64,000 nucleotides of DNA from the sequence record OQ973471.1; one strand, given 5' to 3'. Within the stretch, counting starts at the first letter, position 1. The number at the start of each line of letters is the position of its first letter. Source of the stretch: Escherichia phage AV101. Below are positions 2,374-51,575 of the stretch, piece after piece. Below the pieces are notes generated by a model, which made no database searches, was not told the origin of the DNA, and was given only the letters and a program-made list of their open reading frames with translations. A program made the position numbers and the translations under genes.

Positions 2374-4575
2374 TTAGATTTTGATTTCTTTCTCTGTCAG
2401 TTCGGCAGTGACCTTGTACTTCACGCCATCCACTTCAACTTCCATGGTGGACTCTTCCAGGTCGAGGTCGGTGAACCAGCCGTGGCCAGCAACGATACCA
2501 TACACCACTTTAGACAGTGTCTTGTTCAGGGCACGGACTTCGGTGATGGCCGCCTTGGCAGCAGCGTCGATCCAGTTTTCGATCAGCTGTTTCTGTAAGG
2601 CTTCAGGCACGGCAGTGATCATAGGAGACTTCACGAATGCTTCGTACTCTTTCAGAGCATTGGCGATGAACAAGTCACCAGCATTGAGTTTCTTGTTCTC
2701 GGCAATCTTCTTCTGTACCGCTGCGATAGACGGTAGAGATGAAGCGCCAGCGATCTTCACGTTCAGCTCACGGCTCATGTAGAAGTCGGTAGACTCTTTG
2801 GTCTCAGTCTTCGGTGAGAAGCCGTAATCGCGGATGCCGTAGGAGGACAGGAACTCGGCCGCCTCAGCGCCGTACTGTACTGCCAGGCCTTTGGCGTTAC
2901 CCTTACCAACCAGGGCGTCTCGATAGAACTTCAGCACCTTCTGCTTGCCTTTCAGGGCTTCCAGACGGACATTATCCGCAAAGAACTGAGCAGCACTGAT
3001 GTTCTTGACCATGGCGCGGTTGACCAGCGGTACGCTTTCCAGGTTCAGGACAAACACTTCCGGACCACCAAACACGTGGACGCCCATTTCGATCAGCTTT
3101 TGTACAACTTCGATATCAGCCTTGAACGGCAGAGTCTTCACGTTAATGATACCGTCTTTGACGATGGTGTAGTTGCGCCACTGGAAGGTGTCCAGTTCTT
3201 CAGGTAGACCAAACTTCTTCTGTGCGAATTCAGGCACAGCCACAGTACCGTGTTGAATTGTACGCACACTGATGTTCGGGCGCTCGGAGTTATAGACCAA
3301 ATCACTGATTGGCACAACACCCAGATCGTTGGTAGGTTCGAACGTCGGGTTCCACTCTTCGTGTTCTGCCAGCTTGAGAGCCAGGGCTTTACGCTCTTCT
3401 TTGGACTGAGCATTCGCGATCTGTTCTGCCAGCTTGTCTTCGGTGTCGTCGGTTTTCTGCACAGTACCGCGCCCGATACTCTTATAGGAGAACATCGGAT
3501 GCTTGGTAGCAACAGGCACACCAGCTTCAGCCAGGTACGTCAGCACATCAACGACGGTCGTCGCATCTTCAGCCGGAACCAGGTCATAGTCAATACCGTC
3601 AACACCGCGCAGCTGGTCGTCAACGATGGCCTGGGTCAGATCGTTCTTGATGTTGGAATAGTCCTGCTTGGTGAAGCAGTTGCTGTACTGTTTGATGAAG
3701 CGGACGTCGCCCGTCTTCTTCAGCGCAGCCCAAACCAGATCTGCGTCCATAGTGTGTACACCGTAGAACGCCAGCACGTATGCCGCCTGGATGTCCGTCA
3801 GGCTATCCATCTGGTCGATCATGTTAGGGTTTACAACCCACAGCTTGGTGACGCTCTCAGGGATGCTCACATAGCCGACCGGGTGAGAGTCATCGTCCTG
3901 TACTGCCAGCACGGTTGCCACACCGTTTTCGACGTAGATGGCATGGGTGTAGATGACTGGGACATCAACAACCACCTTCGGCACTGAAGACTTCAGTACG
4001 TTTTCCAGCTCGGTCTGATATTCGGTCTGGCCTTCGGCAAACACGTGAGTCGCGCCAGAGCGCTCGGACATCAGAGCCAGCAGTTCGCGGTTACAGTGCC
4101 AGCCGTATTCGATAAATGTAATGTTATCGAAAGCAAATGGCAGGGTCTCAGCAACCAGTAGAATTTCGTTGGTACGCCAGCAGTTGTCATACCCGTCAGT
4201 CATAAATGCCAGGTTGTTGACGTAGCCAGGTTTCTTCAGGTCACGCGCAGTATCCATCGCCAGTTTCAATGGCTCAACGAAACCAGTACAGCCGGATGGT
4301 TGCAGGAAACGGTCGATCAGTTTGTTCAGCTCGCTCAGGTCAGACGCAGCACTAACCTGGCGGCCAGCGAACACAGTACCAAAGTCGCCTTTGGAGGAGA
4401 AATACAGAACGCTCACAGTGTCTTCCGGCTTCACCAGGGATGGCAGGTTCTCCTTCAGGTGCTTGCGGACTTCAGGGAGCGCACGGTACATAGAGCCGGA
4501 AATGTCTACAACGATTACATGGTTGGACGGAGCAGCAGTCGCAACCGCATTCTTAAATTCTAATGATTCAATCAT
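2374..4575 (-). CDS. von Willebrand factor A (vWA) domain protein, about 733 aa
   Basis: N-terminal MIDAS-type motif VIVVDISGSMY (DxSxS) with downstream T/D positions; start taken at MIESLEF with AAGAGAA upstream; about 530 aa of unassigned C-terminal sequence. Confidence 0.6.
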   Translation of the reverse strand: MIESLEFKNAVATAAPSNHVIVVDISGSMYRALPEVRKHLKENLPSLVKPEDTVSVLYFSSKGDFGTVFAGRQVSAASDLSELNKLIDRFLQPSGCTGFVEPLKLAMDTARDLKKPGYVNNLAFMTDGYDNCWRTNEILLVAETLPFAFDNITFIEYGWHCNRELLALMSERSGATHVFAEGQTEYQTELENVLKSSVPKVVVDVPVIYTHAIYVENGVATVLAVQDDDSHPVGYVSIPESVTKLWVVNPNMIDQMDSLTDIQAAYVLAFYGVHTMDADLVWAALKKTGDVRFIKQYSNCFTKQDYSNIKNDLTQAIVDDQLRGVDGIDYDLVPAEDATTVVDVLTYLAEAGVPVATKHPMFSYKSIGRGTVQKTDDTEDKLAEQIANAQSKEERKALALKLAEHEEWNPTFEPTNDLGVVPISDLVYNSERPNISVRTIQHGTVAVPEFAQKKFGLPEELDTFQWRNYTIVKDGIINVKTLPFKADIEVVQKLIEMGVHVFGGPEVFVLNLESVPLVNRAMVKNISAAQFFADNVRLEALKGKQKVLKFYRDALVGKGNAKGLAVQYGAEAAEFLSSYGIRDYGFSPKTETKESTDFYMSRELNVKIAGASSLPSIAAVQKKIAENKKLNAGDLFIANALKEYEAFVKSPMITAVPEALQKQLIENWIDAAAKAAITEVRALNKTLSKVVYGIVAGHGWFTDLDLEESTMEVEVDGVKYKVTAELTEKEIKI

Positions 4576-4783
4576 TGTTCTCTTCGCCTTGTGCGTAAGG
4601 GTTAAGTTCAGACTCATCAGCGGCTTCGATGCGCGTCTTTACAGAGTCCAGCATATTGTTGATAAACTCACGAGACTGCTCCAGCTGAGCCAAGAGCACA
4701 TCCTTTGGAGCATAGTTCTGAATGCAAGCCGGAATACTTTCAGACGTCGCCTTCAGGTCGGTAAAACATTCTTTCAGTATCAT
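4568..4783 (-). CDS. hypothetical protein
   Basis: 71-aa ORF with ATG start, overlapping the vWA gene start by a few nt. Confidence 0.4.
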   Translation of the reverse strand: MILKECFTDLKATSESIPACIQNYAPKDVLLAQLEQSREFINNMLDSVKTRIEAADESELNPYAQGEENND

Positions 4784-4852
4784 TTGATCTCACTTAACAG
4801 AGACGACGCCCTGTTGGGATTTAATAGCGGTCTTCACAGACATCAGGTTTCC

Positions 4853-4878
4853 CTCAAAACAGGGGAGTCTCCTCCCCT
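4853..4878 (-). terminator. rho-independent terminator downstream of the NAD+ operon
   Basis: Hairpin GGGGAG-GAGA-CTCCCC then TGTTTT on the minus strand. Confidence 0.5.
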
Positions 4879-4885
4879 TCGGTTA

Positions 4886-6550
4886 TCAGATTTGTGAGGC
4901 CAGTTCTGTCACCAGAGGAGCGGCACGGACACGCGCATCTTCCAGCGTTTGGGTGTTGAAGAACTCGCCATCACGATACACCAGCTGGTGCTGGTTGTCG
5001 GCGTCTTGCACCTGATCAAAGGTGATACCGTCAACCAACACTAGTTTACCCTGAGAGTCTTTAATGACTTTAAGGAAACCACGCGCAGACTTTTTAGTCC
5101 CGCCTTTATCGGTCTTCGGCTCTTTGAAGATCTCACGGAATTCACCGTTCACTTTACCAGCCGTGGCTTTCACTGCTGTGCCAGTACTGTCACGGGTGTT
5201 CATCTGGTAGGTGTAGGAACCGATACCGAACACCACGTTGATGGAAGCGAAGTTCCGGTCAGCCAGACGGCTAAAGATCTGGTCTTCACGCGACAGGGTG
5301 ATAGAATCACCGTAGATCAGGCCGATGTGCTCATCCAACAGGAAGTGCCCAGTTTCAGTCTGGGTGCCACCAAAGATCTCCCACAGGCGCTGGATAGAGC
5401 CGACCGCTTCTGAACGGCTGATGATATTACGGTCATCTGCCATCAGAGAGTTGATCGTGCCTTCGCCTGTGATCAGGTGATAGGTGTTCGTCTCTTCGAT
5501 GTGGATGACTTCGGTGCTGCTGGACACGCCGCTGATGTTCAGCGTAGCGCGGTCTTTGAACCCCTCGATACGGTAGCCGCCGACGATGTGCACAGGGTCA
5601 CCAGAGTCAGGGCGGATCACGACTTTACCATTGCGCGCCATGATAATGTCTTTCAGGCGAGGCAGATAGTCGTCGATGACCTGCCAGTAATCCCACGCAT
5701 CAGACACGATGCTGACGATGCCATCAGGATACACGTCCTGCACCAGGCGGCGGAAGGTTTCGAATTCGCCATCCTTCGTGCCCATACACATCACGGCGTG
5801 TTCGGTAGCCGCAACAGAACCAGCAACGACATAATCTTCGTCGATGTCTGCGCCATAATACTCTTCTACGAAGTCCAGGGCAGGGTTGGTGTCGGTGCCT
5901 TTGAAGAACACCAGATGACCGGAACCGGAAGACGCGGCGTCATGCCACCCGCTCATACCACGGAAGGAGAAGTCGTGGCCTTGGTAGTCGATGAACCAAT
6001 GGTCCGGTGATACTCCCGTAGCGAGGGCAGCTTTCACCATCAGTGCCTTGTAATGCAGAGCGATGGTGGCGTTCGTCATCGGCTTCCAGATCTCAGAGCT
6101 GAACACAGTCTCCAGATAGTTGGTCAGCCAGTAGAACTCCGGCAGGGTATTGAACATCACATACACCGGAACACCATACGGACACATGGTGCCTTCAGGC
6201 AGCGCACGGACTTCGATAGGCAGGTAGCCGAGGTCATGCAGGGCTTCAATATGCTCTGTGCCGACGCGGCCTGGACCCAGGACTTTGTTCATGCGACGGG
6301 CATACTTCTTCAGCACCTTGGTCTTCGGGCGCTGGAAGAATGCTTCGTCAAACAGTTCGTGGAACCAGGTCATGAAGCCCTGGATACCCCAGACCACCAC
6401 GCCGTTCTTCGGCAGGTGAGAGTTGAAAAGTTTGTTAGAGCGCGGAGTTCCGTTGGAGAACACCAGCTCACTGCCTTCAGGGAACTGATAGATGTGCCCC
6501 GATTTGTAGAAGTCGATCGCATGGATTGGGTCTAAGTGGCGCATGCTCAT
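4886..6550 (-). CDS. nicotinamide phosphoribosyltransferase family protein (Nampt/NadV-like; possibly Namat of an NAD+ reconstitution pathway)
   Basis: 554-aa protein with strong Nampt-family resemblance across its length (MSMRHLDPIHAIDFYKSGHIYQFPEG... GHDFSFRGMSGWHDAASSGSGHLVFFKGTDT); 4-nt overlap with the upstream PRS-like gene. Confidence 0.85.
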   Translation of the reverse strand: MSMRHLDPIHAIDFYKSGHIYQFPEGSELVFSNGTPRSNKLFNSHLPKNGVVVWGIQGFMTWFHELFDEAFFQRPKTKVLKKYARRMNKVLGPGRVGTEHIEALHDLGYLPIEVRALPEGTMCPYGVPVYVMFNTLPEFYWLTNYLETVFSSEIWKPMTNATIALHYKALMVKAALATGVSPDHWFIDYQGHDFSFRGMSGWHDAASSGSGHLVFFKGTDTNPALDFVEEYYGADIDEDYVVAGSVAATEHAVMCMGTKDGEFETFRRLVQDVYPDGIVSIVSDAWDYWQVIDDYLPRLKDIIMARNGKVVIRPDSGDPVHIVGGYRIEGFKDRATLNISGVSSSTEVIHIEETNTYHLITGEGTINSLMADDRNIISRSEAVGSIQRLWEIFGGTQTETGHFLLDEHIGLIYGDSITLSREDQIFSRLADRNFASINVVFGIGSYTYQMNTRDSTGTAVKATAGKVNGEFREIFKEPKTDKGGTKKSARGFLKVIKDSQGKLVLVDGITFDQVQDADNQHQLVYRDGEFFNTQTLEDARVRAAPLVTELASQI

Positions 6551-7401
6551 TTTACACGTCCTGTATTTTCAGTTTTGAAAGGAAGCCCGTCGGCGGTGAT
6601 GTTCTCCCACCAGACAGTGTCGGCATACACAGCATCATAGATCCCGTCGAAAACAGAGAGACCTTTGCTGAAGATGCCATGGGTAACGAAGAGCGTCATG
6701 TGCTTAGGCTTGTGCTTCTGAAGCTCTTTGCCTAACTCAACGAACGTGCGCCCACCGTCGCAGATATCATCGACCACCACCAGATAGCGGTCTTTGATCA
6801 GTTCAGGGTTTGTAACACTCACCCCAATGATCTCACCAGTCTTGGTATCGCGGTTCTTATGGCCGTAGACAACAGGAACACCGTCCAACGATAGGCTGAG
6901 GGCTTCGGTCTTCTTAGTCGCGCCGCCGTCAGGAGCTACCAACACAGCGTTGTTCCCACGGATGAACCAGCCCAGATACTGACGCACGATGTAATCTTGC
7001 GGGACAACATGAACGTTGTTGATCAGAGAAGACACAACATGGCTGTGAGGATCTTTGATTACCACGCGGTCAAAGTTCATGCTATTGATGAATTCAGCCG
7101 CCCACTTCACAGACAGAGGCTCACCGAAGTCACAATGGCGGTCCTGGCGAGCATACGGGAAGTAAGGGATATACGCATGGAATGTCGTCAGACGGTCCAC
7201 GTTACTCAGACCACGAACGGCGTTTACCAGAAGCGCCAGCTCAATGAAGTCGGCTGATGATTTGATGTGAGCATCAATCACCACGTTCTGAACGTGGCCG
7301 ATAGGGATACCAGACTTTTGGATCTTGATATGTTCCTCACCACCTGGGAAGGTGAAGTGTTTGTAGAACACATCTTGGTCGTTCAATTTCAAACGAAACA
7401 T
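6547..7401 (-). CDS. ribose-phosphate pyrophosphokinase family protein (PRPP-synthetase-like; possibly ADP-ribose pyrophosphokinase Adps)
   Basis: PRPP-binding loop YLVVVDDICDGGRTF and PRS-like N-terminal half; GAGG RBS; co-oriented and overlapping with the Nampt-like gene. Confidence 0.8.
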   Translation of the reverse strand: MFRLKLNDQDVFYKHFTFPGGEEHIKIQKSGIPIGHVQNVVIDAHIKSSADFIELALLVNAVRGLSNVDRLTTFHAYIPYFPYARQDRHCDFGEPLSVKWAAEFINSMNFDRVVIKDPHSHVVSSLINNVHVVPQDYIVRQYLGWFIRGNNAVLVAPDGGATKKTEALSLSLDGVPVVYGHKNRDTKTGEIIGVSVTNPELIKDRYLVVVDDICDGGRTFVELGKELQKHKPKHMTLFVTHGIFSKGLSVFDGIYDAVYADTVWWENITADGLPFKTENTGRVK

Positions 7402-7460
7402 AATGCAGCCTCATGGTGTATTGTACAGCCGTATTATACTGTGACGCACAAATTGAAACG
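7402..7460 (-). promoter_or_regulatory. candidate sigma70-like promoter for the NAD+ operon
   Basis: On the minus strand, TTTCAA (weak -35), about 16 nt spacer, then TATAAT, about 35 nt upstream of the PRS-like ATG. Confidence 0.3.
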
Positions 7461-7509
7461 CCCAGCAAATTCACTGGACGTTATTGATATTGAAAAGGTT
7501 TTGACAAAC

Positions 7510-7743
7510 TCAGGATTTGGAGGAAGCACCCTTCCATGTCTGACGTTTGTAGTGGGAAGCCATGGCCATCGACCCGGCGTATTGCGTTTCACCCCTGACT
7601 ACCACAGCCACAACCAGCTTATGTCGCAACAGGAAGTCCAGACCTGACTTAGACGGGATATCGCCAATGCTCAGTGGACCACGATTGTACAGGGCATACA
7701 TGGTGTCAAGCGCCGCCCCGGTAAAAATAATCTCTTTAGACAT
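7510..7743 (-). CDS. hypothetical protein
   Basis: Internal ATG start MSKEIIFTGAAL; 77 aa. Confidence 0.4.
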   Translation of the reverse strand: MSKEIIFTGAALDTMYALYNRGPLSIGDIPSKSGLDFLLRHKLVVAVVVRGETQYAGSMAMASHYKRQTWKGASSKS

Positions 7744-7750
7744 GGTGGTC

Positions 7751-8056
7751 TCACTTAAACGAGTCAACGGTGGATGTAAGAATTTCGGGGGTGGGTTTGG
7801 CGTCTTGTGGTTCACGGAAACCCACCTTTGCGATGCGGTCCAAGACATTGTACACTTCGCGCGGAAGGGTGTCTACGACCGTGTCCGACATGAACACCAC
7901 GTCTTCTTGGATGGCGTTGTATTCAGCCAGTTTAGCCAGTTCTGATTCTACCAGGGACTTCAGCTTTTGCAATGGGTCGTTGCAATAGTTGAGACGGTTG
8001 CAGTTAGTGAGCGCCTGAGTTAGATTCTCAAACGCTTCTTGTATTTCCTTTGACAT
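7751..8056 (-). CDS. hypothetical protein
   Basis: Internal ATG start MSKEIQEAFENL; 101 aa, helical and acidic. Confidence 0.45.
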   Translation of the reverse strand: MSKEIQEAFENLTQALTNCNRLNYCNDPLQKLKSLVESELAKLAEYNAIQEDVVFMSDTVVDTLPREVYNVLDRIAKVGFREPQDAKPTPEILTSTVDSFK

Positions 8057-8438
8057 TGATATGTGCCTCGTATTGTTGACAGACAACAACTACTTTACGG
8101 CACATGTCGATATCGAACAAGCCAATATGACACTCACGCTTCTTTATCCCCAGCTTATGCGCCAGCCAACTGTAAGCGTCGCTCCTGCTCCTCTCTCCGC
8201 TTTTCCACAATGGGTCAAACGATCTATGGGCTTCCTGCTTAGCAGCACGGAGAGCGGCATTCGCCATCCTTCCCAGAGGTTGTCTGCCGTCGCCATGGGC
8301 ATGGCAACCGACACGGGCATCACATGGAGTGCACACCCAGAACTTCAGATTGCGGAGGTCAGGGCGATGAGGGTAGAGAACATCACCACCGACGAATTCG
8401 GCTGGGAGGCCACAGTAATCACATATAACAGGTTTCAT
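8028..8438 (-). CDS. cysteine-rich (zinc-ribbon-like) protein
   Basis: CDYCG...CTPCDARVGCHAH cysteine/histidine clusters; listed ORF start is GTG, internal ATG (MKPVICDYCG) preferred. Confidence 0.45.
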   Translation of the reverse strand: MKPVICDYCGLPAEFVGGDVLYPHRPDLRNLKFWVCTPCDARVGCHAHGDGRQPLGRMANAALRAAKQEAHRSFDPLWKSGERSRSDAYSWLAHKLGIKKRECHIGLFDIDMCRKVVVVCQQYEAHINVKGNTRSV

Positions 8439-8914: not shown

Positions 8915-10933
8915 TTAGAACACAACTTTCACAGTGCGGTTGAACGAACCGCTCACCTTCACGAACACGTGGTTGCGTTGGGTGGTAGAGAAGCCCAGAC
9001 CGGACAGCTGCTCAGTGCTTGGCTGTACTTTAATCTTACCACCTAACATTTCAAAAACCTTGCGGTGTTTATCAAGTTCCGGCTTCAGATATTCGTTATA
9101 GAAACCACGGGTGCCGACAGGGTTAGCACAACCTTCCAGGATGAAGAACACGTGCTTGTTGCCAGTCTGCTCGCCGTCCCAATGGTTTGGTGAGTTCAGA
9201 ACCAGCTGTACCTTCTGGAAGACGGAGGTCTTGATGCCCCAGATTTCCTGAGAGCGAGCGTCGTCTTTCAGGGTAGAACGGATGTCTACCACTTGTCCAG
9301 CGCGGACATCAATCACAACAGCCAGAGTGCGATCTTTGTGCTTCAGGCCAGGATGCGAAAAACGCTTGGTCTGGCCTTTGTATTCAACTTCGATTTCGAA
9401 GCCCATATCACAGGTTTCACGCTGGCTGAAGTTAGTGACATAGAACTCGTACAGACCATCACGCAGCTTGCGTTCATCGCTGAAGAAGATGTTCTCCACC
9501 GGACGGCGGTTTGGATCAATGCCGTCCATACCGTTCATGTCGATGTCTAGAGTTGCGCCAGTTGTCGAACGACGGTTGTGATAATACACGTGGTTGTGAA
9601 GAGGATCGTTCAGGCTCAGATCCAGGTCGTCGTTGTTATGCCAAGCCAGTGACACACGGAGGAAGCTGTCGACATTGCCGCCTGCGGTCTTCACGCGCTC
9701 TTTGATGGAGTCGGCCACTTCGCCATTGTACGACCAGCTGAAGCCGTTGTTCCACTTGAACAGGTTAGGAGCGCCTGCGGTGGCCGGAGCGATCAGGGAC
9801 ATCAGGTTGCCAATGTGAGAGTTTTCGACCAGCACTTCCAGGGAATGCGCCTTTGGCAACACGTTGGTCAGGAAGTCGTCGATCGTGATCTCTTCAACCT
9901 TGTCCAGGGACTTGGTCGGAGTCTTCACTTCAGACGCCAGCTGAGCAAACGGGTCCATCTTCTTCTGAGCTGCTAGGTCGGCGAACAGAACGTTGTTGAT
10001 GGTCAGATCGTCATACACGGCATAACGGCGACCCAGTGAATCAGTCAGACCCAGCGCTTCGACTTCTTTCTGCGCGTTTTCAATCATCGACTTCGTGACC
10101 AGCGCGGTTGGGCGCTTGTAGTTCGTCGGAGCGACTTTGGCTTCAAAGGACTTCACGGCGGTTTCCAGATCCCGACCTTCATTGAGGTCTACCAGCAGAG
10201 AGCCAATCACGGTATTACGAATGCCGTGAGGGGTATGACCGTTTGCACGGTAGCCAGTGCGCCAAGCCCACAGAGCGCGTTTCTCTTCTGCAGTTTGTTC
10301 GTACAGGGTCTTGTTCACCACGAACGCCTGCACTGCCGCTTTGTGCTCTTCACCGCGATACAGAGAATTCTGGTCAATCAATTCAAGAACGATTTCAGCC
10401 GATTCCAGAGACAGTTCACGCAGGCCGCGCTCAAACACTTCAATCGCCTGGCGGATTTCACCCTTCTTAGAAGCGATGGTATCTGCCCGCAGAACATAGC
10501 TGCTCAGCAGGTCGGTGTGGAAGTGGTTGTAGGTGCGGACAATACCGTCTTTCATTTCGTGATTCGACCCAACACCAACTTTCTTGGTGTCGTTGAAGTA
10601 CACATCGACGATTGCGTGCTGCTTAACATATGCTGACAGCGCCGCAGCGACAACGTCGTATTCGTTACCCAGCTGAATGTTATCCCAGATAGAGATCACG
10701 TTCAGGTCGGAGTCGATGGTGACCACACCGCCGATATTACGGATGAATTGTTTACAGCAGGTACAGTCGTGTTCGGTACGCTCACGATAAAGCGGGTTAG
10801 TGCCAGCAGGGAAAGAAGACAGATACAGATCCCACAGAGCATCTTTATCGATGTTGGTCATGAACAGACCAGTTGCTGACATGGCCAGCACATTATTGTT
10901 TACGGCTACTGCGAAGGGCTTAAATTCTGACAT
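8915..10933 (-). CDS. large uncharacterised protein (672 aa)
   Basis: Long ORF with AGGAAG RBS; N-terminal HDCTCC cysteine cluster; no family recognised by eye. Confidence 0.6.
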   Translation of the reverse strand: MSEFKPFAVAVNNNVLAMSATGLFMTNIDKDALWDLYLSSFPAGTNPLYRERTEHDCTCCKQFIRNIGGVVTIDSDLNVISIWDNIQLGNEYDVVAAALSAYVKQHAIVDVYFNDTKKVGVGSNHEMKDGIVRTYNHFHTDLLSSYVLRADTIASKKGEIRQAIEVFERGLRELSLESAEIVLELIDQNSLYRGEEHKAAVQAFVVNKTLYEQTAEEKRALWAWRTGYRANGHTPHGIRNTVIGSLLVDLNEGRDLETAVKSFEAKVAPTNYKRPTALVTKSMIENAQKEVEALGLTDSLGRRYAVYDDLTINNVLFADLAAQKKMDPFAQLASEVKTPTKSLDKVEEITIDDFLTNVLPKAHSLEVLVENSHIGNLMSLIAPATAGAPNLFKWNNGFSWSYNGEVADSIKERVKTAGGNVDSFLRVSLAWHNNDDLDLSLNDPLHNHVYYHNRRSTTGATLDIDMNGMDGIDPNRRPVENIFFSDERKLRDGLYEFYVTNFSQRETCDMGFEIEVEYKGQTKRFSHPGLKHKDRTLAVVIDVRAGQVVDIRSTLKDDARSQEIWGIKTSVFQKVQLVLNSPNHWDGEQTGNKHVFFILEGCANPVGTRGFYNEYLKPELDKHRKVFEMLGGKIKVQPSTEQLSGLGFSTTQRNHVFVKVSGSFNRTVKVVF

Positions 10934-11052: not shown

Positions 11053-11277
11053 TCAGACGATCTTACCACCGTCACAAGGCCGAGTATCACCGGAGTTGTA
11101 TGCCAGCATCCCCTGCATCAACAAACGTCTTGGCCCAGAAACTGATTTCTGTTTCCTCAACGTACTGCAGAACCGAGTAGTGCCTGGGTAAGGAGTGTAC
11201 ACGAGACGACCTTGCATACGAGCTTCCAGTAGGAATTCATCTGTGGCTTTGCGTAACTTGAATAATTTCCAGCTCAT
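11053..11277 (-). CDS. hypothetical protein (doubtful)
   Basis: 74-aa ORF with ATGA overlap to the HNH gene stop; no other support. Confidence 0.25.
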   Translation of the reverse strand: MSWKLFKLRKATDEFLLEARMQGRLVYTPYPGTTRFCSTLRKQKSVSGPRRLLMQGMLAYNSGDTRPCDGGKIV

Positions 11278-12203
11278 TTTTCACCCTTGTATCTTTTTAA
11301 CCATTTGACGCATTTTAATGGTTCCCACCCTTTATTGAAACGTTCGATAATGCTGTTTGTCGCATTAAAAGCCTTCAAATCCTTTGTTCCGTACACATGC
11401 ATGAGGGCTTCCGCTCTTTTCATCGTCTTCAAAGATTGCATAAGCAAATCAGCTTTTGACCAATACACATCATTTTCGGGGTTCCATTTCGCTTTCTCCC
11501 AAGGCAACTTCACTAACATACCTTTCTGGGCGTTTTCTTTCTGTTTGGCTCGTTGTTCCGGTGTGAAAGAATTGGTTAAGTCCTTCCCATAATTGGGATT
11601 GAGTTTCCCGAGTTTTGCTTGTCTAGAACGCTCCGAAAATTGCTTCAAATCTGTATTGGCGCGACGCCGCTCTAAAACCTGCCTTTTATATTCAGGGTCA
11701 GAAGCCATTCTTTCATGGATTTTCATCAATCCTTTGGTAATTTTCTTGACTTGCTCTGGAGTTCTCTTATATCCATATTGGGGGTTATTCTTTCCTCTCC
11801 TTCCGTACATTGGGTTGTCTTTACCCACAAACCGAGAAACCCCTTTCCATTGTAAAGATAGTTGTTCGCTGAATTTAATTCTGAAACTTTCATATAAATG
11901 AGAATTAAACCGAATCCCCGATTTATTTCTTCTTCCCCCCTTTCTCATAGCCACCACAGCATACACCATTCTCGTGTTTGGGAAAGCCAATGCCAAGCAC
12001 AAATGCACAAGATAATGTTGCCTGCCTGTTAATCGAACCAAATTGTTCTTATCTTTAAAATATTCAGGGAACATGCTCTTGGGAAGGATGTGGTGTAATT
12101 CAGTGTAGTCACCATCAGAATATTTGAAAGATTGAACCATCCTCAAATACTTCTTGATGAAATGCGGTTTACCGCCTTTAGAAACCAACAATTCATAAAA
12201 CAT
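11274..12203 (-). CDS. HNH homing endonuclease with NUMOD3-like repeats
   Basis: HNH core ELHHILPKSMFPEY...NLVRLTGRQHYLVH; repeated GKDNPMYG / GKNNPQYG / KLNPNYGKD motifs; AT-rich codon usage unlike neighbours. Confidence 0.8.
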   Translation of the reverse strand: MFYELLVSKGGKPHFIKKYLRMVQSFKYSDGDYTELHHILPKSMFPEYFKDKNNLVRLTGRQHYLVHLCLALAFPNTRMVYAVVAMRKGGRRNKSGIRFNSHLYESFRIKFSEQLSLQWKGVSRFVGKDNPMYGRRGKNNPQYGYKRTPEQVKKITKGLMKIHERMASDPEYKRQVLERRRANTDLKQFSERSRQAKLGKLNPNYGKDLTNSFTPEQRAKQKENAQKGMLVKLPWEKAKWNPENDVYWSKADLLMQSLKTMKRAEALMHVYGTKDLKAFNATNSIIERFNKGWEPLKCVKWLKRYKGEK

Positions 12204-12234
12204 AACAGGAACTCCAAAAATGAAAGTTCCTGTT
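12204..12234 (-). promoter_or_regulatory. inverted repeat spanning the RBS of the HNH endonuclease gene
   Basis: AACAGGAAC-(13 nt)-GTTCCTGTT lies immediately 5' of the ATG and includes the GGAG Shine-Dalgarno. Confidence 0.45.
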
Positions 12235-12264
12235 ATAATATACTTTGTTAACTCACAAAGTAAG

Positions 12265-13464
12265 TTACTTTTTAAATAAATTTAGCAGGTTTTTAGAACC
12301 AGATGTCGTCGCTTTAGGTTGTCCTTCCCCATCGTAACCAACCTTCCCGCGCGGTTTTTTGCCTTGGTTGACGGCTTCTACACAACGGGTATATTTCGAC
12401 AATTCACAAAAGTGGTTCTCTAATTGTTGAACATTCATACACTGATCCCAAGGCTCTTCGGCCGACCAAAATTCTTCCCTGTTATACCCAAGAGGACCAT
12501 AAACTGCGTCCTGATTATCCCGTAGCCAGAAGATGCATTCTTCGTGGGTCATACCGTCTTTGTTCAGGAACATCAGGTCGATGCCTGCGCGACAGCCTGG
12601 TCCAGCAACCGTGAAGTGGTTCTCGCTGAAAGGATATCCAGGAATGTACGTGAAATCAACCCAGATCTGATAGGCCAGGAATGGACCAAGCCCTTCGATG
12701 TCGTCATACATGCGCTGGTATACTTCCAGAGGAGTACCAAGGCGCAGCAAGTCATGGAAATAGTTTGGATACTTGTTGACGAATGCCTTCAGAGAACGGA
12801 TAACACGCATCGGCATGTATGGTTCCCATCCCTCGATGGTATATTCACCAGGATTCTCTTCGACCAGCTTTTTGGCGACCTTGTAGTCCATCTCGTCCAC
12901 AATACCCTGGCCAACGCGATACACTTTCACCATCATCCCACCGAAGCACTGCTCCTTGTGGTTGACAACCATCTCAGGGAAAGCCAGGCATTGCTTCAGG
13001 CCGCCCGTGTTGAAGGCATTGGTGAATACCTTACCACCGTCGGCCTCGAACTTCTGAAGTCGTTCGCGGGTTGCATCGAGGTTGATCTCGGCGAATTCTT
13101 TGATCGTCATCGCGCCGCCGATAGCCTGGATTGGATCCCAGAGGTTGAACATGCGGAACATCACGCAGTTGAACATCTTGTCGGCCATACCCAGAGCATC
13201 GTTGTTGACGATGTTGTTGATCAGGTTGAGAGACTGTCTGTCGTGCTCTCTCCGGACGTTACAGAATTTAACCTGGCGTAGTATGGGATTATCAGTCCAA
13301 GGAGCAGGAAGGCGCTGGACGTCCTTCTTGACGTGGATCTGATAACGATCGCGCATCCATTCGTAAGACAGGCTGGTATGGGTCGGACTGAGAACCGGTT
13401 TGGCCGACTTTATCTTTTCTTCACGGACACCGCAGTACGGGACGTCCAGGGCTTTATCTTTCAT
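12265..13464 (-). CDS. hypothetical protein (399 aa)
   Basis: ORF with AAGAGGA RBS; sits where T4 has DNA polymerase gene 43 relative to regA. Confidence 0.6.
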   Translation of the reverse strand: MKDKALDVPYCGVREEKIKSAKPVLSPTHTSLSYEWMRDRYQIHVKKDVQRLPAPWTDNPILRQVKFCNVRREHDRQSLNLINNIVNNDALGMADKMFNCVMFRMFNLWDPIQAIGGAMTIKEFAEINLDATRERLQKFEADGGKVFTNAFNTGGLKQCLAFPEMVVNHKEQCFGGMMVKVYRVGQGIVDEMDYKVAKKLVEENPGEYTIEGWEPYMPMRVIRSLKAFVNKYPNYFHDLLRLGTPLEVYQRMYDDIEGLGPFLAYQIWVDFTYIPGYPFSENHFTVAGPGCRAGIDLMFLNKDGMTHEECIFWLRDNQDAVYGPLGYNREEFWSAEEPWDQCMNVQQLENHFCELSKYTRCVEAVNQGKKPRGKVGYDGEGQPKATTSGSKNLLNLFKK

Positions 13465-45940: not shown

Positions 45941-46469
45941 TATACAACCAACCGAGGAATAGAAAGAAATAAGCCCGAAGGGGCTTTGATTATCTTTCTG
46001 TGGTGGCCTCAGCAGAAGCCGTACATCAATTATTTGCCATCGTTCAGGTCTCCCAGGTACACTCGGACGCCGTTGATACCTGACGCCGAAGAAATCAGAA
46101 TTTTCAGAGTACTATCGACGTACACCGCCCAACTGGATGTTACCAGACAACGCATAAGTTGGCATATTGACCTCAACGTTCTTTAGTCTATTGCCTATGT
46201 CATTGTTTGAATCTAGGAGTTCTACCAGAGTCTCTTCCATTTTCTCCCTTTCCCTCGATTCACGGGTTTTGGTTTTCGAAAATGTTTCTCAGTCTCTCTT
46301 CGAGTCTGGCTAGAGTTACGTTATCTGGTTCATTTCCCATAGGGATTTTCTCAGGTTAGTTAAGTCGGAATTGACTGAAACAGTCTACCTAATGACTTGT
46401 TTGTGGTACAACAAAACCCCCTCCCCTCATGGGCTTCGAAGATTAAATACTTTTTCTAATGATAAAAAT

Positions 46470-46496
46470 AACCCCGCCGAAGCGGGGTTTTTGTTA
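46470..46496 (-). terminator. rho-independent terminator (UUCG tetraloop)
   Basis: AACCCCGC-CGAA-GCGGGGTTTTT. Confidence 0.6.
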
Positions 46497-46497
46497 G

Positions 46498-48699
46498 TTA
46501 CTGGATAACAATACTACACTCCATATCTGAAACAACACCCGCATTGCTGTATGTTGTAATAGTCCATGATGTTGTTGATGTTTTATTAACAACAACATAC
46601 CGTCCAGTACCAGGTGAAGAAAAAGTGTAGCCCGCGCGTGACATATCAGTAGGGAAGTTGATGACCCAAATACCAACGGATGATTTAGTCGCGGTACAAC
46701 CAGCAGCAAGAGCAAGCGCACCAGAAGAGTTGATATTAACTACGCACGGTGAACTTACCAGCTTAACCACACCAGAGTCGAGAGTATATGTATCGTAAAC
46801 TGTGCCGATGCGGTTCATCCCAAGATATGTCACCGCAGAAGAAGCCAATCCCGCCCGGTTACGTAGCACGACAGACACCCCAAGACCTGAGCAGTTAGTA
46901 ACTTGCTGGTCAGAAACCATACCGGAAGTGGAACTGTATTGTTCAAGAACTGCGTCAACCGTGTTTGATCCGTTGTAGCAATTGAACGTTACATTTTCCA
47001 ATCTGTTTCTGCGCACGCTTTTCCCAAAATCAGACCTAACATTACATATACGGTTATATTGCCCAGGGGTATTAATGGTGACCATACCTCCACTGATAAC
47101 GTTATCTAAGCAGTCTGTTAAAGAAATTTGATGGTCAAAAAATCCATATGCGCTCTTGAAGTCGCCGTTGTTCTGCATGAATATCTGAACGTTTTCGATT
47201 CGGTTATTGCTGCACCCCTGTAAAGCCACCACGTGGTCGTTACCGTTAAATGCTCCATTGGAAATACTGGTAAACTTACCGCCGATGATTTTGCAGTTGG
47301 TGCAGCCTCTAGAGAATTTAATATTATTATTACCGCCTACGGCGCCATCAACACTCCCCAAAACGGATGAATTCATAACGCCCTCACAATCTATGAATTT
47401 AAAATCCGTGGTCGGGAACCCAGTGCCATCTGCGGATGTAGCATGGTAGTTTATTAGTAGCCCGTTTTCTGCGTACCCTTCAGATACATATCCACCTTTA
47501 ACACCTAGAACCTCCATATTCCCCCCGGCTTTAGGCTGCCCAATGAAGCGAGGAAATGTAATCTCGGGATATAGTGCACCAATTAATACAAAATTACCGT
47601 GGTTTGGACCCTTGAATCCTGTGTTATCAAATGTGCAACTATTGGATCTTACACCTACTCGACGAGAAGAATCTGATGCGCCATAGGCTGTATTACCCAT
47701 ACGTAGAGGGGTTACTTCTGTGGATAGCGTGGTAAAGTAAATACCAGAGACTTCGGTATAATTTCCTGTTAACTCCACTGCACCTTTTGTTTGGTCGAAA
47801 GATGACCCGACCAATGTTATTATACCACCGCGACCTATCAATCTACGGTTATCAAGATCACTGATAACATTACTTGATAAAGTCACATTAATGTCAATAT
47901 AAACTGTTTTATAGTGAGTAATCAGTACATATAGCAAAGAGCTTACATCGTCACCCTCAGCAGCCCATGCTGATATAAAAGTATCAACGTCATCCTCTAT
48001 TTTTTCAAGGTAAACAATTGTAGAGTCAATTGTCATGGTTTGATCACTTATTGACCCTATAACTCCAGATACTTCTGGCTTAATTCTGTAGATACCAGAA
48101 TCAGTATTAACAAATGACGTACCAACTGGAACTGTACCTCCAACCTGTGCAACTGATGAGATATCTAATGGGTAAACGTTACCGCCAATAACTTTATTTC
48201 TCATATCATTAACGTCACATCGAAGTGAAGCATCCCCAACACTAATCCACGCTCCTAAACCTTCTCCACCCGTTGACCCTGGAGTTGTGTCAGCAGGAAC
48301 TACTTTAGGCAGTACACCATCCCATCGGTACTTACCATCAGTAAATACAACCAGTTCATTCTTAGTATTAACTGTTACGCCCGTAGAAAATGATCCAGGT
48401 AGGGTTACATACTCTTCGCGGGTAACAGCTAGTGCACCCAAGTCCACATTACCAGCAGAGTGAACTAATACCCCAGTAGGACTAAGGCTTACAGCAGTAA
48501 CCCCTGAACCAATGTCAGCAGGTAGGGAATAAGCCCGTTGTGACACTTTGTCATAGATGACTTTATAACCGCTTAGTACAGCACCCACCGAGAAGTAAAC
48601 AACCTCGGATTGTTTAACCCCAAAGTGTCGGGCCACTGCTTGTTTATTGGTTAAGATTCCGGTTGAACCTTTACCACCTTGTGAGAACATTTCGTTCAT
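46498..48699 (-). CDS. tailspike protein (733 aa) with shared N-terminal module
   Basis: N-terminus (GVKQSEVVYFSVGAVLSGYKVIYDK...GKYRWDG) also found in the 648-aa and 1102-aa proteins; Gly/Asn/Thr/Ser-rich C-terminal body. Confidence 0.8.
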   Translation of the reverse strand: MNEMFSQGGKGSTGILTNKQAVARHFGVKQSEVVYFSVGAVLSGYKVIYDKVSQRAYSLPADIGSGVTAVSLSPTGVLVHSAGNVDLGALAVTREEYVTLPGSFSTGVTVNTKNELVVFTDGKYRWDGVLPKVVPADTTPGSTGGEGLGAWISVGDASLRCDVNDMRNKVIGGNVYPLDISSVAQVGGTVPVGTSFVNTDSGIYRIKPEVSGVIGSISDQTMTIDSTIVYLEKIEDDVDTFISAWAAEGDDVSSLLYVLITHYKTVYIDINVTLSSNVISDLDNRRLIGRGGIITLVGSSFDQTKGAVELTGNYTEVSGIYFTTLSTEVTPLRMGNTAYGASDSSRRVGVRSNSCTFDNTGFKGPNHGNFVLIGALYPEITFPRFIGQPKAGGNMEVLGVKGGYVSEGYAENGLLINYHATSADGTGFPTTDFKFIDCEGVMNSSVLGSVDGAVGGNNNIKFSRGCTNCKIIGGKFTSISNGAFNGNDHVVALQGCSNNRIENVQIFMQNNGDFKSAYGFFDHQISLTDCLDNVISGGMVTINTPGQYNRICNVRSDFGKSVRRNRLENVTFNCYNGSNTVDAVLEQYSSTSGMVSDQQVTNCSGLGVSVVLRNRAGLASSAVTYLGMNRIGTVYDTYTLDSGVVKLVSSPCVVNINSSGALALAAGCTATKSSVGIWVINFPTDMSRAGYTFSSPGTGRYVVVNKTSTTSWTITTYSNAGVVSDMECSIVIQ

Positions 48700-48719
48700 A
48701 TAAACCTCTTTGTTTTTCT

Positions 48720-48746
48720 AGTAAACCCCTCCGAAGAGGGGATTGT
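48720..48746 (-). terminator. hairpin terminator (UUCG tetraloop)
   Basis: CCCCTC-CGAA-GAGGGG. Confidence 0.5.
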
Positions 48747-51140: not shown

Positions 51141-51330
51141 TACTCTCCAAAATCACGATCCTGTCTTCCCTTGCCTGATTATCAAACAGAGTCTTCAATC
51201 GTTCCTCCAGTCTGAATAGGAACAGTTCACCTGATTCATTCATAATATTACCGTAATTGTACCCCAATGAGGCCGTATCATAGGATGGCTCTTAGATAAT
51301 GCTTAGTATGATGGGATACATCCATACATA

Positions 51331-51546
51331 GTGTCTGGCACTATATCTATAGCAGGAACTCTTAGCTATAGCATATACCTTACACATCAGACGGTAATGT
51401 TCTCCGTTGTTAATATATTTTCAGCCATTTCAACTAAAGAAATGATGACAACATATGCATTACTTACAACCGCATTAATTTCGGCTGTGATAACAATGAT
51501 CGTATCGATACTTCTGTACAACAAAGTTGAGAAAAAGTTCATATAA
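51331..51546 (+). pseudogene. C-terminal remnant of an acyltransferase-3 family (O-acetyltransferase-like) membrane protein
   Basis: LSYSIYLTHQTVMF resembles the AT3-family SYSIYLWH motif, followed by a hydrophobic helix; AT-rich; no ATG start (GTG in frame); plus strand within the minus-strand tailspike cluster. Confidence 0.4.
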
Positions 51547-51551
51547 TAACA

Positions 51552-51575
51552 AGGCCCATTATCGGGCCTTTTGTT
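51552..51575 (+). terminator. rho-independent terminator
   Basis: GGCCC-ATTATC-GGGCC followed by TTTTGTTTAT. Confidence 0.5.

Follow-up and report, generated by a model that had tools for sequence, protein, structure and literature searches.

What is the role of two adjacent phage genes, one encoding a protein that resembles a PRPP synthetase (Prs) and the other a protein that resembles Nampt? We examined this question for a minus-strand ORF pair in a 64,000-nt stretch of Escherichia phage AV101 (OQ973471.1), hereafter called the window. The window shares 98% identity with Escherichia phages YX22 and LHE287 and belongs to the Ackermannviridae (Aglimvirinae). A sequence-only reading had described a two-gene operon with a 4-nt overlap and had linked it to a phage pathway for NAD+ reconstitution. 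ORF calling, domain assignment and the ATGA at the gene junction bear out the operon structure (Table 1). The same four-base overlap is unchanged in YX22, SenASZ3 and RCIP0012, which suggests translational coupling. The pair lies in a replication and nucleotide-metabolism region, with a clamp loader, helicases, RegA and a MazG-like pyrophosphatase nearby.

On the evidence of homology and sequence signatures set out below, the adps–namat pair is very probably an operon for NAD+ reconstitution pathway 1 (NARP1). In such a pathway, a host defense protein with a SIR2, TIR or SEFIR domain would split NAD+ into ADP-ribose and nicotinamide. Adps would then transfer pyrophosphate from ATP to the free ribose of ADP-ribose to form ADPR-PP, and Namat would exchange the pyrophosphate of ADPR-PP for nicotinamide, yielding NAD+ directly. 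This route would pass through no NMN intermediate and would need no adenylyltransferase; by restoring NAD+, it would overcome NAD+-depleting defenses such as SIR2-HerA, Thoeris I, DSR1/2 and SEFIR. We infer both enzyme reactions and the anti-defense role from the homologues of phages Bas63, SPbetaL1 and FADO, and the reaction chemistry is taken from proteins with 27–47% identity because all assayed enzymes come from outside the Ackermannviridae.

Table 1 Features of the adps–namat locus (window positions)
Feature	Position	Strand	Description
adps	6547..7401	-	ORF, 284 aa; PF13793 and PF00156; Prs-family fold; predicted ADP-ribose pyrophosphokinase (Adps)
namat	4886..6550	-	ORF, 554 aa; PF04095 and NF006629; Nampt fold; predicted nicotinamide ADP-ribose transferase (Namat)
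ATGA overlap	6547..6550	-	adps stop and namat start within the same four bases
Upstream hairpin	7457..7482	-	10-bp stem AACGUCCAGU/GCUGGGCGUU, then UUCAAUUU; RNAfold dG -14.0, z -3.65 (500 shuffles)
TATAAT (-10-like)	7433..7438	-	31 nt upstream of the adps ATG, inside the conserved ~75-nt leader
RBS GAGG	7409..7412	-	7 nt 5' of the adps ATG; read from the sequence
Selectivity-clamp loop (SCL)	6401..6448	-	Namat residues 35-50: TPRSNKLFNSHLPKNG; K40, then L41 and F42
Insertion, 58 aa	5402..5575	-	Namat residues 326-383; HMMER alignment splits there; MAFFT alignment
Selectivity-clamp helix (SCH) motif	5189..5221	-	Namat residues 444-454: GSYTYQMNTRD
Downstream terminator-like hairpin	4855..4878	-	AGGGGAG-GAGA-CUCCCCU (4878-4861), then GUUUUG; begins 8 nt past the namat stop

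The first protein belongs to the Adps clade

The 284-aa protein carries the Pribosyltran_N (PF13793) and Pribosyltran (PF00156) domains of the ribose-phosphate pyrophosphokinase type and matches phrog_619 with 304.8 bits. Profile comparison with canonical Prs, one of the checks proposed in the sequence-only reading, placed it under every NCBIfam Prs cutoff: TIGR01251 scored 108.3 against a threshold of 113, and ten other equivalog or subfamily Prs models scored 51–94 bits against cutoffs of 296–536. In a neighbor-joining tree of 24 sequences (16 phage Adps-family proteins, seven bacterial Prs and the window protein; 271 columns, 200 bootstraps), the seven Prs separated from the 17 phage proteins, including that of the window, in 187 of 200 replicates. 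The protein is also devoid of the N-terminal ~20-aa and C-terminal ~25-aa segments of Prs, and all five columns that discriminate Adps from Prs are of the Adps type.

The likeness to bacterial class I Prs extends to the fold and to catalytic residues R96, D98, H131, K194, R196 and D220-D221 (E. coli Prs numbering), whereas the window protein has DPHS in place of DLHA and DDICDGGRTF in place of DDMIDTGGT. K182 aligns with K162 of SPbetaL1 Adps, K190 of Bas63 and K194 of E. coli Prs, the catalytic lysine; a K162A mutant of SPbetaL1 Adps is inactive (Osterman et al. 2024).

Pairwise identity was considered as a separator of Adps and Prs and fails: the window protein shares 27% identity with SPbetaL1 Adps, 22% with FADO Adps and 23% with E. 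coli Prs, so that the 22–27% range for Bacillus-phage Adps stands against 19–23% for the seven Prs. Over all three validated Adps (Bas63, SPbetaL1 and FADO), the range is 22–32%. As pairwise identity shows no preference for Adps over Prs, membership in the Adps family rests on the tree, the indels and a few signature columns. Osterman et al. 2024 used a Namat homologue within 10 genes as an operational criterion for Adps; here, namat directly adjoins adps. SPbetaL1 Adps turns ADPR and ATP into ADPR-PP, with PRPP-synthetase activity absent in a control reaction (Osterman et al. 2024), and by analogy the 284-aa protein is predicted to convert ADPR and ATP to ADPR-PP.

The second protein combines a Namat core with an unusual clamp

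The 554-aa protein is a member of the NAPRTase/Nampt family (PF04095) and scores 472.7 bits with NF006629, against a cutoff of 405. Since this Nampt-type model is passed, profile scores alone cannot split Namat from Nampt, and NF006629 was dropped as a discriminator. The top PDB matches, 9w5x/9w5w, which we infer to be SPbetaL1 Namat, reached an E value of 1.1e-135, as compared to 3e-50 for mammalian Nampt. Sequence identity is 47.5% to SPbetaL1 Namat and 46.6% to Bas63 Namat, versus 32.3% to the Nampt of Vibrio phage KVP40. Among phage homologues, identities fall into bands of at least 80% for the Ackermannviridae, ~35–46% for a large group and 24–29% for the weakest full-length matches; in this lowest band are a KVP40-sized Vibrio phage and one phage of a type that Supplementary Table 2 of Osterman et al. 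2024 lists as Nmnat-associated.

Conserved positions comprise D13, Y15, F194, R197, D220, R313, D315, G414, D415, G444, S445, R453 and D454, and H251 lies within a conserved ATEH segment. The Nampt-like core is thus complete (F194, R197, D220, H251, R313, D315 and R453), judged against F189, R192, D215, the catalytic His, R306, D308 and R399 of SPbetaL1 Namat.

Two elements, SCL and SCH, form the selectivity clamp. The Namat SCH consensus is GS-X-phi-X-phi-X-phi-TRD (PMC12774641), and ten of the 11 positions of the window motif fit it, with Tyr446 at position 3. The exception is position 7, occupied by Met450 instead of the Tyr or Phe present in all six other lineages with a readable motif. 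At the same site, KVP40 Nampt reads GGGLLQQLDRD. The window protein does not group with the KVP40-type clade, given 32% identity as opposed to 47% to Namats and a clamp motif of the Namat type. The SCL is described as supplying a stacking residue: R, K or Y occupies its third position, and where this is K or Y, stacking falls to the next residue (PMC12774641). Here, K40 is followed by Leu41 and then Phe42 (K-L-F), in contrast to K-W-F with Trp43 in Bas63 and to SPbetaL1, which uses Arg40. Two of the three adenine-stacking positions are consequently nonaromatic, Met450 (Tyr396 in SPbetaL1) and Leu41; Phe42 might serve as a substitute stacking residue for Leu41. The SCL is invariant among the relatives examined, and Met450 and Leu41 are constant across the four Ackermannviridae copies compared, from three lineages.

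A further peculiarity is the lineage-specific 58-aa insertion, which is missing from SPbetaL1 Namat and KVP40 Nampt; Bas63 Namat carries an insertion of ~100 aa at the same site. Together with the clamp variant, it could confer a donor preference different from that of SPbetaL1 Namat and so define a functionally distinct NARP1 subtype, an idea that we consider unlikely. Such a preference might take the form of equal use of PRPP and ADPR-PP or acceptance of a modified ADP-ribose derivative. SPbetaL1 Namat itself favors ADPR-PP over PRPP and produces NAD+ directly (Osterman et al. 2024), and by analogy the 554-aa protein is predicted to form NAD+ from ADPR-PP and nicotinamide.

Conventional NMN salvage as an alternative

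The sequence-only reading had argued that Prs and Nampt alone cannot make NAD+. This overlooks host NadR and NadD, which could finish the synthesis from NMN. The cassette could accordingly be a conventional salvage booster in which a true PRPP synthetase and a true Nampt supply NMN, with host NadR, NadD or PncC completing NAD+. Both proteins do bear Pfam and NCBIfam domains of PRPP synthetase and Nampt, up to the passed NF006629 cutoff; Namat enzymes still form NMN from PRPP in vitro (Osterman et al. 2024; PMC12774641), and a partly nonaromatic clamp could weaken the preference for ADPR-PP. The position of the first protein in the Adps clade, its sub-cutoff Prs scores and its missing terminal segments nevertheless speak against this explanation, as do the Namat-type rather than Nampt-type SCH motif and the lack of PRPP-synthetase activity in SPbetaL1 Adps (Osterman et al. 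2024). Moreover, Bas63 still evaded defense in a pncC nadR double mutant; completion by the host from NMN has been ruled out experimentally for this phage only (Osterman et al. 2024). We regard conventional salvage as improbable and retain NARP1 as the preferred explanation.

Searches for NMNAT and accessory genes

The proposal that the window holds no NMNAT-like gene stood up to a broader search and could be extended to the complete YX22 genome. Using six queries (E. coli NadR and NadD, KVP40 Nmnat and NadR-like proteins from PVA23, ICP1 and LNA4), tblastn gave no match at E <=1 in the window or in YX22, and phmmer and profile searches of both returned nothing better than E 0.4. The accompanying claim that an NMNAT gene elsewhere in the genome would refute the pathway could not be upheld: in both ICP1 and the Seunavirus phage LNA4, an Adps-family match is accompanied by a NadR-like one, and Supplementary Table 2 of Osterman et al. 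2024 gives ICP1 Namat as 'Adps-associated'.

Accessory domains were sought in seven neighbor ORFs, two downstream and five upstream. Neither Macro (PF01661, PF14519, PF20016) nor RyR domains were detected in these by Pfam at E <=1; above the cutoff, the scan reported only VWA and DUF3268, besides weak chance-level matches. In these neighbors, the window thus represents the plain two-gene form, unlike NARP1-AP (Adps-Adpp-Namat, with a Macro-domain ADPR-1''-phosphatase) and RyDEP-assisted NARP1, which have the same Adps and Namat core. Plain NARP1 fails against aRES-type defense (Osterman et al. 2026), and the window cassette is therefore expected to fail against it as well.

Leader and flanking hairpins

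A consensus promoter and terminator scan of positions 4500-7900 called neither TATAAT nor either hairpin, and these elements were instead assessed by folding, by comparison with shuffled sequences and by conservation across genera. The suggested promoter-like TATAAT is indeed present in a conserved leader, but the hexamer carries little weight by itself. It lacks a -35 partner, and the minus strand of the whole window contains 18 copies versus 19.7 expected, that is, chance level, so TATAAT was dropped as stand-alone promoter evidence. A stronger case for a candidate promoter upstream of adps comes from leader conservation: ~75 nt are near-invariant in YX22, RPN242, SenASZ3 and RCIP0012, covering three Ackermannviridae lineages, and the sequence is diverged further upstream. 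The upstream hairpin marks this boundary of the conserved block. In RCIP0012 and SenASZ3, changes compatible with G-U pairing preserve its stem, and the hairpin is likely the terminator of the gene upstream of adps.

The downstream hairpin terminator noted earlier was corroborated by folding (dG -14.2 for a 35-nt core, z -3.1) and by conservation: in RCIP0012 and SenASZ3, the stem is kept, the loop alone varies and the flanks diverge past the hairpin. That the scan did not call it is explained by its short U-tract (4 U). With a hairpin on either side, adps and namat seem to be transcribed as a separate unit.

Comparison with known systems

The closest functional references are the NARP1 systems of Bas63 (JohannRWettstein), SPbetaL1 and FADO (Osterman et al. 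2024, bioRxiv 10.1101/2024.02.11.579819; Nature 2024), which share the adps-then-namat order and close linkage. Common features further include the placement of the window Adps in their clade, ~47% identity of Namat to those of Bas63 and SPbetaL1, the catalytic Lys of Adps, the full Namat catalytic core and the lack of a detected Nmnat, here in the window and the YX22 genome; the SCH motif fits at ten of 11 positions. The gene junction differs, with the 4-nt overlap of the window contrasting with a 45-nt gap in Bas63 and a 1-nt overlap in SPbetaL1. NARP2 of KVP40, composed of Nampt and a bifunctional Nmnat, shares the Nampt-fold core and the purpose of rebuilding NAD+ during infection but uses PRPP and NMN, needs Nmnat and has neither an Adps partner nor the clamp motif. 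Overall, the match to Adps and Namat put forward in the sequence-only reading is supported by the Prs profile scores, tree, signature columns, PDB match and the ten fitting positions of the SCH motif.

NARP1 reverses NAD+ depletion, a killing mechanism that many bacterial defenses share (Thoeris I, DSR1/2, SIR2-HerA, SEFIR); whether a phage carries it is therefore relevant to host range and to selecting phages for therapy. Members of the Ackermannviridae are in development against Salmonella, E. coli, Klebsiella and Dickeya. For the window, the value lies in correct annotation, as public records name the products 'ribose-phosphate pyrophosphokinase', 'nicotinamide phosphoribosyltransferase' or 'hypothetical protein'.

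Distribution and selection

The same cassette occurs in the sister Ackermannviridae SKML-39, Ag3, 0507-KN2-1, YX22, LHE287 and SenASZ3. Sister Aglimvirinae cassettes encode proteins with 97–99% identity, share the ATGA overlap and clamp residues and have near-identical leader and hairpin sequences. For SKML-39 (gp048/gp049), 276 of 284 Adps residues (97.2%) and 550 of 554 Namat residues (99.3%) are identical to the window. Osterman et al. 2024 list its Adps as a Prs/Adps homologue (Supplementary Table 1) and its Namat as 'Adps-associated' (Supplementary Table 2); the table entries for two sister Ackermannviridae phages read 'Namat within 10 genes: Yes'. Near-identical sister copies having been published, the cassette is already known. 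A 2024 Ackermannviridae review (PMC11721090) had also tied the genes to evasion of NAD+ depletion. It does so in other words, and a literature search combining NARP1 with Ackermannviridae genus names did not find the term applied to this family. Nothing here is conceptually new, since publications already cover the pathway, its distribution and its occurrence in Ackermannviridae.

Presence of the cassette varies: it is found in eight of 14 Agtrevirus genomes and absent in six (PMC10791037; Sorensen et al. 2023), and it is deleted in the relative RPN242. It is dispensable. This pattern bears on an explanation proposed for Agtrevirus phages by Sorensen et al. 2023 (PMC10791037), a nucleotide-supply module that would raise PRPP during replication to feed purine and pyrimidine synthesis and would play no part against defense. 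The surrounding replication and nucleotide-metabolism genes agree with such a function. It does not account for why a nicotinamide transferase should be an obligate partner joined by the 4-nt overlap, however, and Adps-clade enzymes tested to date make no PRPP. Absence from six Agtrevirus genomes and RPN242 also fits accessory counter-defense better than core supply, and we consider nucleotide supply very improbable.

Losses in relatives raise the additional question of whether the cassette is decaying and nonfunctional in the lineage of the window. Besides the RPN242 deletions, an in-frame Adps::Namat fusion is annotated in Shigella phage Ag3, and the clamp departs from reference Namats. Against decay, both ORFs are intact with all catalytic residues kept, and Met450 and Leu41 are fixed in the four Ackermannviridae copies rather than scattered. 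Synonymous differences between genera far exceed nonsynonymous ones, with 84 versus 14 codon differences in namat and ratios of 49:15 and 90:20 in adps. Both genes are under purifying selection, and decay is the least credible of the explanations considered, leaving a NARP1 operon as by far the most probable one. The small ORFs directly flanking the cassette vary between genera.

A probable NAD+ reconstitution operon, already catalogued in Ackermannviridae

The window derives from an Ackermannviridae (Aglimvirinae) genome and is collinear with 74.5-137.4 kb of Escherichia phage YX22. Megablast against the 98%-identical YX22 left four window segments (1074-1582, 11057-12328, 46005-50333 and 51144-53054) unmatched; these are variable islands, the larger ones within the tail-spike region. 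The region with the two genes adps and namat is 98% identical in Escherichia phages YX22 and LHE287 and ~95% in Salmonella phage SKML-39. The adps stop and namat start lie within four common bases, ATGA; this overlap, noted from the sequence alone, also occurs in three relatives.

Features of the cassette and its surroundings
Feature	Position	Strand	Description
First ORF (adps)	6547-7401	minus	284 aa; two Pfam domains of ribose-phosphate pyrophosphokinase
Second ORF (namat)	4886-6550	minus	554 aa; NAPRTase/Nampt family (Pfam)
Upstream hairpin	7482-7457	minus	10 bp, then U-rich run; dG -14.0, z -3.65
Downstream hairpin	4878-4855	minus	7-bp GC-rich stem, then GUUUUG; dG -14.2, z -3.1
ORF two genes downstream of cassette	2374-4617	minus	747 aa; von Willebrand A domain at the N terminus (PF00092, E 1e-5); phrog_2426; kept in relatives
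ORF upstream of cassette	8028-8438	minus	DUF3268 zinc-finger protein, E 2e-37
ORF upstream of cassette	8915-10933	minus	672 aa; phrog_1735; no Pfam match

NAD+ reconstitution pathway 1 (NARP1) was described by Osterman et al. (bioRxiv 2024, 10.1101/2024.02.11.579819; Nature 2024). In it, ADP-ribose is pyrophosphorylated by Adps and the product, ADPR-PP, is joined to nicotinamide by Namat. The pair defeats SIR2-HerA, type I Thoeris, DSR1, DSR2 and SEFIR and occurs in 859 phage genomes (Osterman et al. 2024). Their Supplementary Table 1 includes proteins of SKML-39, Ag3 and 0507-KN2-1, with "Namat within 10 genes: Yes" for the latter two, and in Supplementary Table 2 the SKML-39 Namat carries the label "Adps-associated". 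Identity of the window proteins to the SKML-39 pair is 97.2% (Adps) and 99.3% (Namat). Citing Osterman et al., a 2024 Ackermannviridae review (PMC11721090) also linked this pair of genes with NAD+-depletion evasion. The two-gene arrangement described in the sequence-only reading is confirmed, and NARP1, which that reading had proposed, is supported by these SKML-39 orthologues and by the family placement of both proteins. The feature is a known system already catalogued in Ackermannviridae, with predicted enzyme chemistry for the window version; the only mildly unusual points are a fixed Met450/Leu41 clamp variant and a 58-aa insertion, both in Namat.

The first protein groups with Adps

The 284-aa protein scored under the cut-off of all 11 NCBIfam models for ribose-phosphate pyrophosphokinase (Prs), with 108.3 against 113 for TIGR01251 and 51-94 bits against 296-536 for the remainder, while the phage family phrog_619 matched over the full length (304.8 bits). 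We aligned it with 16 phage Adps-family proteins, including the three experimentally validated ones (Bas63, SPbetaL1 and FADO), and seven canonical Prs (E. coli, Acinetobacter, Acetoanaerobium, Rhizobium, Streptococcus, Streptomyces and Nostoc). The tree separated the seven Prs from all phage proteins, including that of the window, in 187 of 200 bootstraps. An N-terminal segment of ~20 residues and a C-terminal segment of ~25 residues, common to all seven Prs, are missing from the window protein, which carries DPHS and DDICDGGRTF where Prs have DLHA and DDMIDTGGT and is phage-type in all five strictly discriminating columns. In the alignment, its K182 falls opposite K162 of SPbetaL1 Adps, a residue whose replacement by alanine inactivates that enzyme (Osterman et al. 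2024). Since pairwise identity is no higher to Bacillus-phage Adps (22-27%) than to Prs (19-23%), the assignment as Adps rather than housekeeping Prs rests on the tree, indels and signature columns.

The second protein groups with Namat

For the 554-aa protein, the best solved structures were 9w5x and 9w5w (E 1.1e-135), which, going by the published description, are presumably SPbetaL1 Namat crystal structures; mammalian Nampt scored E 3e-50. Identity was 47.5% to SPbetaL1 Namat and 46.6% to Bas63 Namat, against 32.3% to the Nampt of the KVP40 NARP2 pathway. Homologues in phage genomes fell into identity bands of at least 80% (Ackermannviridae), 35-46% and 24-29%, the last comprising the weakest full-length matches. 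The SPbetaL1-type catalytic core is complete (D13, Y15, F194, R197, D220, H251, R313, D315, G414, D415, G444, S445, R453 and D454).

Namat also has a specific motif in the helix of its adenine-stacking clamp, GS-X-phi-X-phi-X-phi-TRD (PMC12774641), which the window helix GSYTYQMNTRD matches at 10 of 11 positions. The corresponding sequences are GSFTYQYNTRD in SPbetaL1 and GSYTYQYMTRD in Bas63 Namat, as opposed to GGGLLQQLDRD in KVP40 and GSGGALLQKLTRD in mammalian Nampt. These data point to a probable Namat rather than Nampt. Motif position 7, one of two adenine-stacking aromatic positions, is Met450 in the window, and the clamp loop reads K40-L41-F42, compared with K42-W43-F44 in Bas63 and R40 in SPbetaL1. 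Met450 and Leu41 are fixed in all four Ackermannviridae copies compared, from three lineages. Published clamp mutants showed modest effects on activity (1.3- to 1.7-fold loss for singles, 2.4-fold for the double R40A/Y396K; PMC12774641), and we therefore expect that the window protein would function as Namat, with a clamp helix and loop that fit the Namat pattern only in part. The insertion (residues 326-383) is absent from SPbetaL1 Namat; Bas63 has ~100 extra residues at this site. A further solved chain, labelled "Nampt" (PDB 9ke8/9keo; E 4.6e-105), carries an intermediate motif, GAQTYQRNTRD.

NMN adenylyltransferase and accessory domains

Using E. coli NadR and NadD, KVP40 Nmnat and the NadR-like genes of three phages as queries, tblastn detected no NMN adenylyltransferase at E up to 1 in the window or the complete YX22 genome, and phmmer and profile searches of both gave nothing better than E 0.4, in agreement with the earlier impression for the window. 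Such a gene elsewhere in the genome, previously regarded as grounds for rejecting NARP1, would not be a valid refutation: Vibrio phage ICP1 and Seunavirus phage LNA4 each have an Adps-family and a NadR-like NMN adenylyltransferase match, so one genome can carry NARP1 alongside an NMNAT-type salvage enzyme. None of seven neighbouring ORFs contained, at Pfam sensitivity, a Macro domain (Adpp phosphatase of NARP1-AP) or RyR domain (RyDEP). By gene content, the cassette is a putative plain two-gene NARP1 form.

Flanking signals and module borders

The sequence-only reading described a self-contained cassette with a promoter-like TATAAT and a terminator hairpin. A GAGG lies 7 nt ahead of the adps ATG, and the TATAAT (7438-7433, minus) 31 nt upstream of it. 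This hexamer alone is no evidence, because its minus-strand count in the window is at chance level (18 versus 19.7 expected from composition), no -35 partner was found and a consensus scan did not call it. Unlike the hexamer, leader conservation carries weight: ~75 nt ahead of the ATG are nearly invariant in YX22, RPN242, Kuttervirus SenASZ3 and Klebsiella phage RCIP0012, with divergent sequence further upstream. Ahead of this leader lies the upstream hairpin, which we take to terminate the preceding gene and whose pairing is preserved in relatives through G-U-compatible changes. The downstream hairpin begins 8 nt past the namat stop codon; relatives keep the stem with a variable loop, and inter-genus homology stops just beyond. 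Comparison of RCIP0012, SenASZ3 and SKML-39 showed that small flanking ORFs vary between Ackermannviridae genera, while the conserved block runs exactly from hairpin to hairpin, as would be expected of a module swapped or lost as a unit. This hairpin-bounded conservation makes it reasonable to regard the cassette as a probable unit of its own.

Selection, loss and an annotated fusion

Compared with SenASZ3, the window namat has 84 synonymous and 14 non-synonymous codon differences; adps has 49 and 15 relative to SenASZ3 and 90 and 20 relative to RCIP0012. This synonymous excess indicates purifying selection on both genes. The cassette is dispensable. In Escherichia phage RPN242 (OL656110.1), with flanks 96-97% identical, window 7250-5426 and 5280-4838 are deleted, and the remnant (OL656110.1 4864-5097) retains only a 77-aa chimeric ORF with an intact leader. 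This loss agrees with the presence of both genes in 8/14 Agtrevirus genomes (Sorensen et al. 2023, PMC10791037).

The annotation of Shigella phage Ag3 shows Adps(1-222) fused in frame to Namat, the junction being a Phe-Val-Glu tripeptide common to both genes (window 6736-6744 and 5864-5872). The fusion may reflect a real deletion or may be an assembly error. The 547-aa phrog_12872 seems to be modelled on this annotated chimera, which, if so, would explain why both window proteins match that one PHROG.
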